Shown here piece by piece: positions 30,010 to 30,738 of a stretch of 57,021 nucleotides of DNA. This DNA comes from a virus. Position 1 is the stretch's first letter; each line of letters begins with the position of its first letter. The notes under the pieces are model-generated. The model made no database searches, had not been told where the DNA came from, and saw only the letters and a program-made list of their open reading frames with translations. Both the position numbers and the translations under genes were made by a program. Where the stretch lies: IMG/VR virus record IMGVR_UViG_3300045988_085176. One strand, written 5' to 3'.

Positions 30010-30703
30010 CATTCCCTATTCCGCCACCGCTCAATGGTGCCACCGCCCGCCTCATGCGGCGAGGAGAGGCATATGTGCGCTTCCGCTTAGATTGTCACGC
30101 CATATTTGGGAGGCCCGTTCACAGGCAAACACGGCAGTTTTCAGCGGGATAGCGCTTTATGGTCCAGCCATCTAGAATACAGTGGCTTTATCGCCGCTGG
30201 GCCGAGCAACCGGGGCAGGTCATAGCTGCCACCGCTTCCGCCTCCATGACAGGCGGGTGCCCTTTACCCTTCTCCGGTGCATAATTAGGCACTGTAAGCC
30301 TCCGGTATAGTGTCTTTCCACAGTCATAGGAACCTGCAAGATTTGAACTTGCGATCTCTACCCCTTTCGGTTAAGCGACGGATTCCACCCCGTCCCAGGT
30401 TCCGCATGCCCCCGTCTTTCCGGGGTGTCAGCTCCTTGGCCTTTGGAGCAAAAGACGTTGTTGTTTGGCTGGTCACAGTTTTCCTCTATGGCCTGCCGTC
30501 CGGTGTCGTCCCGGACTTCTCGCCTTACATACCAGGCTGGTTGCCGCATGGAGGGGGCGACCCTTCGGCCCGGATTCTTGGGCTGATTCACTCGTGCGGC
30601 ATATATCCCACACAGTAGGGGCAACGGCACTATTGCCGCCACCCCATCCGTGTGAAGGAGGTGAGAAAAAAGATGGTGGACAGGTGGTAGGAATCTACCT
30701 ACC
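30010..30703 (-). ncRNA. Large structured non-coding RNA candidate (~690 nt; ROOL/GOLLD-like or novel)
   Basis: Own consensus promoter. GC-rich with no credible ORF. Multiple GNRA-capped helices and an embedded tRNA-shaped module. tRNA genes lie beyond the antisense endonuclease gene. Confidence 0.6.
30328..30403 (-). other. tRNA-shaped module lacking an anticodon arm (inside the ncRNA)
   Basis: GGAACCT/AGGTTCC acceptor, GACG/CGTC D-stem with GG loop, GCAAG-TTCAAAT-CTTGC T-arm. The anticodon arm position holds a CC-GAAA-GG mini-hairpin. No CCA. Confidence 0.6.
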
Positions 30704-30709
30704 AGTTTT

Positions 30710-30738
30710 ATTATATCACAATATATAGCGCTTATCAA
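30710..30738 (-). promoter_or_regulatory. Consensus promoter of the large ncRNA
   Basis: On the - strand: TTGATA, 17-nt spacer, TATAAT, about 25 nt after the terL stop codon. Confidence 0.7.

Follow-up and report, generated by a model that had tools for sequence, protein, structure and literature searches.

A probable non-coding RNA array built of exchangeable tRNAs, tRNA-like elements and structured modules in phages of Flavonifractor-type gut Clostridia

The IMG/VR virus record IMGVR_UViG_3300045988_085176, a stretch of 57,021 nucleotides (nt) referred to below as the window, carries on its minus strand the gene of the terminase large subunit (terL, open reading frame (ORF) 30764-32473; PHROG terminase large subunit, E = 5e-59). 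A promoter on the same strand begins 25 nt past the terL stop codon (30764-30766), and an earlier note on this DNA had proposed that it drives a large, structured, ORF-free RNA covering positions 30010 to 30738. From the comparisons reported here, this segment is the promoter-proximal 5' two-thirds of a non-coding RNA array of about 1.5 kb, running on the minus strand from 30738 to 29234 (Table 1). The array is made of semi-autonomous folded modules: true tRNAs, tRNA-like elements that do not decode, a pseudoknotted module of about 115 nt (B1-B2) and an internal-loop module of about 80 nt (M5). The family of which it is a member is a mosaic one, specific to phages of Flavonifractor-type gut Clostridia and absent from Rfam.

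Table 1. Features of the array and of its downstream unit, in the order of transcription of the minus strand. Locus counts were obtained by nhmmer, with each block of the window as query, among 146 viral loci; z values are relative to shuffled sequences.
Feature	Position	Strand	Loci (of 146)	Basis and remarks
Sigma-70-type promoter, TTGATA-17-TATAAT	30710-30738	-		11/12 match; TG upstream of the -10 element
5'-terminal hairpin at the predicted transcript start	30685-30704	-		Predicted fold
Pyrimidine-rich tract, predicted single-stranded	30655-30684	-		Ends in CACCUCCUU (30663-30655)
Window-type 5' leader (CCACC)			9	
H1, 7-bp outer stem around an 11-bp hairpin	30609-30654	-		Folds; variant sequences stay paired
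TLS1, AUAU leader and tRNA-like three-way junction	30541-30604	-	53	36 distinct sequences
INSa, rare inserted hairpin block	30452-30540	-	4	Fold
HPa, 5-bp hairpin with 9-nt loop AAAGGCCAA	30431-30449	-		Palindrome GGCC at 30438-30441
Hairpin CCCCG-GAAAGA-CGGGG	30410-30425	-		Sequence and fold; in an inserted block with the tRNA-like module, 10 loci
tRNA-like insert			10	
Non-decoding tRNA-like cloverleaf	30328-30403	-		ARAGORN; z = -3.5
B1, conserved 21-nt GACUGUGGAAAGACACUAUAC followed by an H-type pseudoknot	30257-30325	-	63	Double-sided changes
B2, two adjacent hairpins with complementary 7-nt loops	30210-30256	-	89	Loops GUCAUGG (30250-30244) and CUAUGAC (30225-30219)
HPb, optional hairpin	30156-30209	-	17	Not in phage Castelnaud; stability non-significant (z = -1.2)
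M5, most widespread module	30077-30155	-	110	Covarying outer helix
M6, 12-bp acceptor/T-like minihelix behind an AUAU leader, end GGC-ACCA	30035-30070	-	91	Variants and fold
TLS2 5' half, acceptor strand and class II-type (long-variable-arm) D arm GAGCGGUGGCGGAAUAGG	30014-30032	-		Homology to L005, L013 and L017 ends at 30014
I-Ssp6803I-like PD-(D/E)XK homing-type endonuclease gene	29555-30007	+		Pfam PF11645, E = 1e-17; PDB 2OST, E = 1e-3
TLS2 3' half, T arm and acceptor 3' strand	29472-29502	-		97-100% identical to relatives with intact TLS2
tRNA, anticodon CCA, aberrant T arm, encoded CCA	29397-29467	-		Rfam, 54.5 bits; leader AAUAU
Spacer modules: GCAA-capped hairpin, nested hairpin, GAAA-capped hairpin directly before tRNA-Met	29308-29396	-		Minimum free energy, z = -6.2
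tRNA-Met (CAU), encoded CCA, last RNA gene of the array	29234-29307	-		Rfam, 57.8 bits (29237-29307); ARAGORN
Gene of a 55-amino-acid CxxC...CxxC protein	29040-29207	-		Shine-Dalgarno sequence and ATG, 27 nt past tRNA-Met
20-bp hairpin and T tract, likely terminator of the promoter-array-small-ORF unit	28941-28983	-		Terminator scan, sequence

The general features that the earlier note had read from the letters were recovered: a promoter after terL, near-consensus in sequence, a GC-rich and highly structured segment, and a lack of credible coding potential. Both promoter hexamers are retained, with a varying spacer, in three relatives that share the gene order of the window (L013, L032 and L011; L-numbers designate related loci). 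The GC content is 0.54 to 0.61 between 30000 and 30700, compared to 0.36 to 0.43 in the flanks, and the 726-nt minus-strand RNA has a minimum free energy (MFE) of -306 kcal/mol (z = -5.6 against shuffles); the plus strand is also more stable than its shuffles (z = -3.75). The three ORFs called in the segment (30310-30618 on the plus strand, 30358-30852 on the minus strand and 30465-30728 on the plus strand) match no Pfam or PHROG family, and they vary in length or disappear among relatives whose DNA is 88 to 99% identical.

Position 30010, where the RNA had been thought to end, turned out to be merely the junction of an insertion. The antisense gene noticed there does encode an endonuclease, which has its own near-consensus promoter (29504-29532, plus strand) and lies within a tRNA-like element, TLS2, of which it replaces about 90 nt in the middle. 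In L005 (97% identical), L013 and L017, TLS2 is intact and class II-like, no endonuclease ORF is present, and homology jumps from position 30014 to position 29502 of the window. The RNA locus therefore extends from the promoter to tRNA-Met and takes in both same-strand tRNA genes that had been predicted beyond the endonuclease, each of which Rfam finds. The only relative of the endonuclease with a solved structure is I-Ssp6803I (2OST). I-Ssp6803I homes into a tRNA gene, and the enzyme of the window may be a free-standing homing endonuclease that targets the tRNA-like gene.

Homologues were gathered with exact seeds taken from conserved motifs, and many of them are closely related. In a BLAST search of phage records, a partial homologue was found in Flavonifractor phage Castelnaud, upstream of HNH/terS/terL, where it is annotated as small hypothetical proteins; INSa, HPa and the tRNA-like module, which together make up a block of about 213 nt, are missing from this copy, as is a hairpin of about 55 nt. 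Two Flavonifractor phages match in the phage collection. A 19-mer seed from M5 retrieved 38 viral contigs, a B1 pattern at least 119 viral contigs, and a pattern of the M5 loops at least 120 metagenome contigs, mostly from the human gut; together, the module seeds matched more than 250 viral and gut-metagenome contigs. The species-representative genomes with a match were those of Flavonifractor plautii and Muriventricola aceti. A second copy of the array, suspected near 38.2-38.5 kb of the window, was discarded because the BLAST matches there are shared protein-coding genes and not RNA modules.

The nhmmer collection suggested by the earlier note showed that the blocks of the window are very unequally distributed among the viral loci (Table 1). 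Block-wise comparison revealed that whole modules are shuffled, inserted, deleted or replaced between relatives, without regard to reading frames. M5 is found without B1-B2 in some loci, and an alternative pseudoknotted cassette may substitute for B1 while keeping the same 21-nt start. The single closed molecule of about 690 nt that had been envisaged thus gives way, on the comparative data, to a longer mosaic array punctuated by tRNAs and tRNA-like elements. Closure by two CCACC and two GGTGG boxes, also proposed, is present in the single-sequence MFE structure and is not conserved in relatives: the GGTGG boxes are part of locally paired tRNA-like elements in 91 loci, and the CCACC leader occurs in only 9, so this pairing was rejected.

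Membership in a known RNA family was assessed with all 4227 families of Rfam 15. The whole window was scanned at gathering threshold and the region 28800-31000 at E <= 10 with permissive filters; 9 related loci were scanned at E <= 1 and 17 at gathering threshold. In this covariance-model check, which the earlier note had recommended, only tRNAs matched the region; the remaining Rfam matches were a RAGATH-31 RNA elsewhere in the window and chance-level ones. The note had hesitated between a ROOL or GOLLD member and a new large phage RNA. No match to the ROOL model, or to the GOLLD model including its universally conserved 3' region, was found in the window at threshold, in 28800-31000 at E <= 10 or in the 9 relatives at E <= 1, and membership is not supported; absence from Rfam makes the second option the better one. 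OLE, HEARO, raiA, RNase P RNA, group I and II introns and phi29 pRNA had no match in the region even at E <= 10, and ARAGORN called no transfer-messenger RNA.

Some weaker resemblances were followed up and set aside. The cow-rumen-3 model (RF03083) gave 23.8 bits (E = 0.011, against a gathering threshold of 86.7 bits) in the 28800-31000 scan, through a weak full-length alignment over HPb and the 5' half of M5 that includes a common AAAACU.CCGU element. This sub-threshold match was not repeated in seven relatives with the same modules, and we regard it as a chance match, or as a sign of remote kinship at most. By eye, a fold like that of the hepatitis delta virus (HDV) ribozyme was considered for B1, whose helices follow each other as in a simple H-type pseudoknot and which has no P3 or P4 hairpin, and a hammerhead core for TLS1, whose CUGAAAA is without the essential G; the Rfam models of these two ribozymes gave no match either. 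Strings of the type GAAGUCCGGG in INSa and TLS2, reminiscent of RNase P CR-I, are not backed by any RNase P model. In the literature on cow-rumen-3, int-alpA, relatives of ROOL and GOLLD, and tRNA-like RNAs of gut phages, we found no description of the array family, of which individual modules could be among the 8,495 unnamed IMG/VR candidates of PMC10690425. As far as we can tell, the RNA locus is uncatalogued.

The structure of B1-B2 was tested on an alignment (A1) of 36 distinct sequences, using helices that we specified ourselves: P1, the H-type pseudoknot, the two hairpins and the pairing between their loops. The proportion of paired cells was 95.3%, compared to 35 to 48% when partners were slid. 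Double-sided changes affected 25 cells, compared to 5.4 in shuffles, and none of 500 shuffles reached the covariation score. In B1, P1 joins 30305-30302 with 30277-30274, and the pseudoknot helix joins GUGCC (30292-30288) with GGCAC (30261-30257); the latter shows double-sided changes from CG to UA and from UA to CG or GC, and P1 also changes on both sides. Five sequences with an apparently unpaired pseudoknot helix were explained by an alignment shift due to a 3-nt insert. The B2 loops are complementary in 36 of 36 sequences, one position varying between G-U, A-U and G-C, and the second B2 stem covaries. RNAalifold independently finds P1 and the first B2 hairpin. Read on the minus strand, the alignment holds 52 G-U cells against 7 A-C cells, and this excess, together with the co-oriented tRNAs, argues for selection on a minus-strand RNA and not on DNA.

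In M5, an internal loop formed by CUGAAAACU (30144-30136) opposite GUGACAAUCUAAG (30098-30086) separates a covarying outer helix from a hypervariable inner stem, with 65 distinct inserts among 96 unique instances. The outer helix is 91% paired, a level reached by none of 1000 shuffles, and occurs as 21 fully paired haplotypes, which include CCCGC/GCGGG, UCCGC/GCGGA, GCCGC/GCGGC and CUCGC/GCGAG; among the viral instances, pairing of the three basal positions of the inner stem reaches 95% or more. Since the search patterns fixed both strands, CUGAAAACU and GUGACAAU(C)UAAG, their invariance is not independent evidence. Most of the loci collected by the B1 pattern alone carry both internal-loop strands unchanged, and the constancy of the M5 loops hints at a specific binding partner. 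A variant of M5 has an additional AAUGA(C/A)AAUG directly 5' of the outer helix (L003, L042, L109 and L134, and metagenome loci such as L153, L176 and L180), so that the UGACAAU string of the 3' strand of the internal loop is present twice.

Among the single helices listed in the earlier note, CCCCG-GAAAGA-CGGGG was seen in both sequence and fold, GGCAA...TTGCC does pair but as part of the longer 11-bp hairpin of H1 with its 6-nt loop, and GGCC-GAAG-GGTC clashes with the conserved fold of TLS1. The stem of HPa, further downstream, covaries (GCUCC/GGAGC versus GUCUC/GAGGC). The four central nucleotides of its loop read GGCC in 81 loci and GUAC in 27, whereas 6 loci have a non-palindrome one mutation away; each of the two palindromes is found with several different stems and cassettes. 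No covarying partner in cis was found for this tetranucleotide, and arrays of the GUAC type have no extra GUAC in cis. Kretsch et al. interpreted a palindrome switch of exactly this type, in which GGCC gives way to GAUC or AGCU, as covariation in favor of symmetric kissing loops between molecules of OLE and of GOLLD. The HPa switch hints, by analogy, at RNA self-assembly; the palindromes may also have a reason at the DNA level, such as restriction or methylation sites. In B2, the linker between the hairpins is only 3 nt in most sequences, so that on our geometric reasoning a 7-bp kiss in cis looks strained and pairing between molecules is conceivable.

The second group of modules resembles tRNAs to various degrees. 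TLS1 comprises a 6-bp acceptor-like stem, a 4-bp hairpin and a 6-bp T-arm-like hairpin, with no D arm; 95% of its cells are paired, compared to 40 to 50% with partners slid, its covariation score was reached by none of 500 shuffles, and two compensatory pairs lie in the T-arm-like stem. The tRNA-shaped module that the earlier note had spotted is the cloverleaf at 30328-30403, with a 7-bp acceptor stem, a D arm, a canonical T loop UUCAAAU and, at the position of the anticodon loop, a 6-nt GAAAGG loop on a 3+3-bp stem. ARAGORN labels it tRNA-Arg(CCG). The Rfam tRNA model does not match it at E <= 10 and it has no 7-nt anticodon loop: it is tRNA-like and not a decoding tRNA. Relatives hold similar elements, to which ARAGORN gives 'anticodons' of 2 or 4 nt. 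The homologue of the tRNA at 29397-29467 is called tRNA-Trp by ARAGORN in L017; in the window its T arm, GGGGGAACAGAGCCUUCC, is non-canonical, accepted by Rfam and left uncalled by ARAGORN, and this may be another, partly degenerate tRNA. The spacer modules that follow it reappear in relatives with compensatory changes.

Most of these elements share a type of leader. A (U)AUAU or AUCU sequence stands ahead of TLS1, M6 and the tRNAs, in many cases right after a GNRA-capped hairpin, and in L011 and L036 a bona fide tRNA-Ile, behind the same AAUAU, takes the exact slot of TLS1. A CCA end is encoded in M6 and in the two tRNAs. At the proposed cut sites, a coaxial acceptor/T-like helix of about 12 bp can be drawn: 6 + 6 bp that could stack in TLS1, 12 bp followed by ACCA in M6, and that of the cloverleaf. 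Bacterial RNase P accepts minihelix substrates and prefers leaders with U at -1 and A at -4. That relatives have true tRNAs in the slots of tRNA-like elements, with the AUAU leader in common, suggests a punctuation by RNases P and Z.

The explanation that we favor, with somewhat better than even confidence, is that of a cassette-shuffled non-coding array in which tRNAs and tRNA-like elements would punctuate conserved ornate domains and would be processed by these two enzymes. The near-consensus promoter would transcribe the array, with probable read-through of the 55-amino-acid ORF up to the terminator at 28983-28941. RNase P would cut after the conserved AUAU leader ahead of tRNAs and tRNA-like elements, and RNase Z or exonucleases would trim the 3' ends. 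The tRNA-like elements would thus serve as punctuation, and the tRNAs would be freed together with at least one stable core RNA (HPa, followed by B1-B2, HPb and M5). Copies of a freed core may pair with each other, by way of the palindrome in the HPa loop and the two complementary loops of B2. Our best guess, by analogy with proposals made for GOLLD and ROOL, is that the core could act in trans, as a scaffold or a sequestering RNA, and be produced late in infection. A bolder proposal, which we hold tentatively and consider rather doubtful, is that the core at about 30449-30077 (HPa, B1-B2 and M5), enclosed by the tRNA-like punctuation, could assemble by itself into a homo-oligomer made of RNA only. 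This would be a new class in phages of the human gut, unrelated by descent to GOLLD, ROOL or OLE but built with the same devices, a palindromic symmetric kissing loop and complementary loops that pair 'hand in hand' between molecules, and it would be excised by RNases P and Z from a cassette-shuffled precursor.

Several observations weigh against the punctuated array. Cleavage at the tRNA-like elements is something we infer only from their likeness to tRNA and from leader conservation; TLS1 has neither a D arm nor a canonical T loop, and the leader of the 30328-30403 cloverleaf is CAUGC and not of the AUAU type. TLS2 is broken in the window by the endonuclease insertion, and therefore not every module is needed. 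The first stem of B2 and the acceptor of TLS1 hardly vary. The shuffle controls overstate independence, the sequences being related and collected with conserved seeds, and the statistics ignore kinship. Finally, the array of most relatives immediately precedes terS/terL and has an activator-type promoter in front of it, and a role in cis is conceivable for a part of it.

The alternative that survives best, although we consider it unlikely, is one large ornate RNA that would act as a single unprocessed molecule in the manner of ROOL and GOLLD, as an analogue or a very distant relative, its tRNA-like parts being structural domains or linker cargo. The setting in a phage tRNA island, with tRNAs in variable linkers as in GOLLD, is consistent with it, as are the pseudoknots, the many GNRA-type loops, the CUAAG receptor-like loop, the stability of the whole 726-nt RNA and an HPa switch similar to those of OLE L9.3 and GOLLD L21a. 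Against it, modules are freely shuffled, deleted and replaced, M5 does without B1-B2, and the closure of 5' and 3' ends is not conserved. The ROOL and GOLLD models do not match even below threshold, and the tRNA-like elements are exchangeable with real tRNAs, which need excision to function.

Genomic context bears on a second alternative, which is more improbable, namely that the array is a cis-acting leader of the packaging or late operon, serving processive antitermination, mRNA stabilization or translational control of terS/terL or of the portal gene. In every case the array lies within the packaging module and runs in the direction of its genes, in two orders: a small XRE-type helix-turn-helix (HTH) gene, the array, (HNH) terS and terL in about 90 loci, and terL, the array, a 55-amino-acid Cys-rich ORF and the portal gene in about 30 loci, including the window. 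Ahead of the array, relatives have an inverted-repeat operator and a promoter without a -35 element, and the leader holds a stable 5' hairpin and a tract resembling an anti-Shine-Dalgarno sequence; all of this would fit a leader. The same modules, however, are found ahead of terL in one order and past it in the other. In L021 and L026, M5 is the last module of the array and next to it comes the terminator of a convergent gene, leaving nothing downstream to regulate, which argues against a purely cis-regulatory leader. The unit of the window has its own strong promoter and a terminator before the portal gene. The gap that holds the array measures 0.9 to 2.1 kb in the terL-array-portal order and 0.4 to 3.2 kb in the HTH-array-terS order, and a size of 0.4 to 3.2 kb with free shuffling of modules is unlike known antitermination RNAs.

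Very unlikely, in our opinion, is a decaying tRNA island in which only the true tRNAs matter and the rest consists of degenerate tRNA remnants and scars of homing-endonuclease recombination. Several modules are tRNA-derived in shape, a homing-type endonuclease lies inside one of them, and module content is mosaic; but B1-B2, M5 and HPa stay paired through compensatory changes and keep invariant loops over more than 100 loci and on many backgrounds, which indicates purifying selection on structure. Least probable of all is a DNA-level element (a pac/cos packaging site or recombination hot spot) or a set of short protein-coding genes, for which one can cite the adjoining terminase genes, the small ORFs placed by database annotators on the Castelnaud homologue and the folding of the plus strand, but which agrees poorly with a G-U excess that fits RNA rather than duplex DNA, with ORFs that match no family and are not conserved among near-identical relatives, and with module insertions and deletions that ignore reading frames.

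Downstream of the array, the gene of the 55-amino-acid protein is conserved, being present at this place whenever the order is terL-array-portal, and is probably co-transcribed with the array. The protein has no Pfam match and its homologues are all uncharacterized (one is labelled YacG-like by one source), so that it was set aside as an informative partner; its zinc-ribbon-like sequence could be that of an RNA- or DNA-binding zinc ribbon. The terminator hairpin falls inside the mechanically called portal ORF (27426-29018), and the portal start is probably a GTG after GGAGGTGACAAG near 28915, downstream of the terminator. At the other end of the array, the string CACCUCCUU (30663-30655) is identical to the anti-Shine-Dalgarno 3' end of 16S rRNA and lies in a tract predicted to be unpaired; the leaders of relatives repeatedly carry CCUCC-containing pyrimidine tracts. 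Relatives with the other gene order have a different 5' hairpin, GGGAGCG..CGCUCCC, at the position equivalent to 30685-30704.

Some further observations concern the window and its relatives. The RAGATH-31 RNA of the window is full-length (83.2 bits; 4196-4249, minus strand) and lies 8 nt downstream of TATGCGACAAT (4258-4268, minus strand), itself immediately preceded by a terminator hairpin. Most relatives have the identical box ahead of their RNA array, shortly before its 5' hairpin, and TATGCGACAAT may be a shared phage-specific promoter for non-coding RNAs. The int-alpA motif (RF02996) was found above threshold on the array strand in six relatives (L002, 3214-3283; L012, 4543-4612; L038, 4518-4585; L047, 3402-3472; L119, 3850-3920; L137, 3808-3878), a few hundred nt downstream of the B1 anchor; the window has no int-alpA, which may be another cassette of the arrays. 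In L104, L120, L129 and L146, the first B2 hairpin is joined straight to the 3' end of M6, about 85 nt past the B1 anchor (CAUGGAGGCGG followed by GCGGUGGCACCA). This fusion looks as if the similar GAGGCGG strings in B2 and in M6 had recombined and the sequence between them had been lost; in L104, L120 and L146 it is followed by a gene that resembles those of DNA methyltransferases.

To our knowledge, only a handful of very large, ornate RNAs are known from bacteria and phages, and with the array an independent family would join them, from hosts of the human and mouse gut that can be cultivated. The prophage Castelnaud of Flavonifractor plautii YL31 is inducible and has a homologue, which makes genetics and RNA biochemistry feasible, and cassette mosaicism provides natural deletion and insertion variants of every module. 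The interchange of tRNA-like elements and true tRNAs points to a testable processing logic, and the palindrome-switching loop would allow a direct and cheap test of self-assembly.

Precedents exist for parts of the proposed mechanism. In the tRNA cluster of phage T4 ('species 1/2' RNAs) and in eukaryotic MALAT1-mascRNA, stable non-tRNA RNAs are co-transcribed with tRNAs or tRNA-like structures and freed by RNases P and Z. The non-tRNA domains of the array differ in being larger, pseudoknotted and conserved as exchangeable cassettes, and their processing is one that we only infer here. The pRNA of phage phi29 is likewise a phage RNA beside packaging genes, with two complementary loops that pair between molecules, a situation comparable to that of the B2 loops with their 3-nt linker; the array does not match its model, and size and fold differ. 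We know of no requirement for an RNA in packaging by terS/terL with an SPP1-type portal, as found in the phages that carry the array. With OLE, the likeness is limited to loop L9.3, whose palindrome switch is read as covariation of intermolecular self-pairing; sequence, host and context are unrelated, OLE being a chromosomal RNA of extremophilic Firmicutes that works with proteins.

The closest comparison is with GOLLD and ROOL, whose structures, with that of OLE, were reportedly solved by cryo-electron microscopy in 2025. GOLLD is phage-encoded, lies in or beside tRNA islands, combines conserved parts with a variable linker that sometimes holds tRNAs, and is pseudoknotted and ornate; one of its loops covaries between palindromes, and HPa shows the same kind of switch between GGCC and GUAC. 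The array has no detectable match to it in sequence or structure, its modules are shuffled far more freely, its core is flanked by non-decoding tRNA-like elements, and its host range is narrow (Flavonifractor-type gut Clostridia). ROOL, also large and structured, is encoded by phages and prophages and often found close to tRNA islands; it has multiple pseudoknots and no known protein partner. The array, lying between terL and the portal gene with same-strand tRNAs, has the same kind of context. ROOL, however, is a single architecture of 500 to 660 nt with one variable linker, whereas the array is a mosaic of exchangeable cassettes without a model match. GOLLD forms a cage and ROOL a homo-octameric RNA-only nanocage, whereas the array is known here from sequence alone. 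What survives is an analogy in the sense of 'works like' and not of membership, suggested by the tRNA-island context, the tRNAs in variable linkers, the pseudoknots and the palindrome-switching loop. Should the role of the array be linked to tRNA islands, like those of GOLLD and ROOL, three unrelated cases could be compared, and this would reveal which features are convergent and hence functionally essential.

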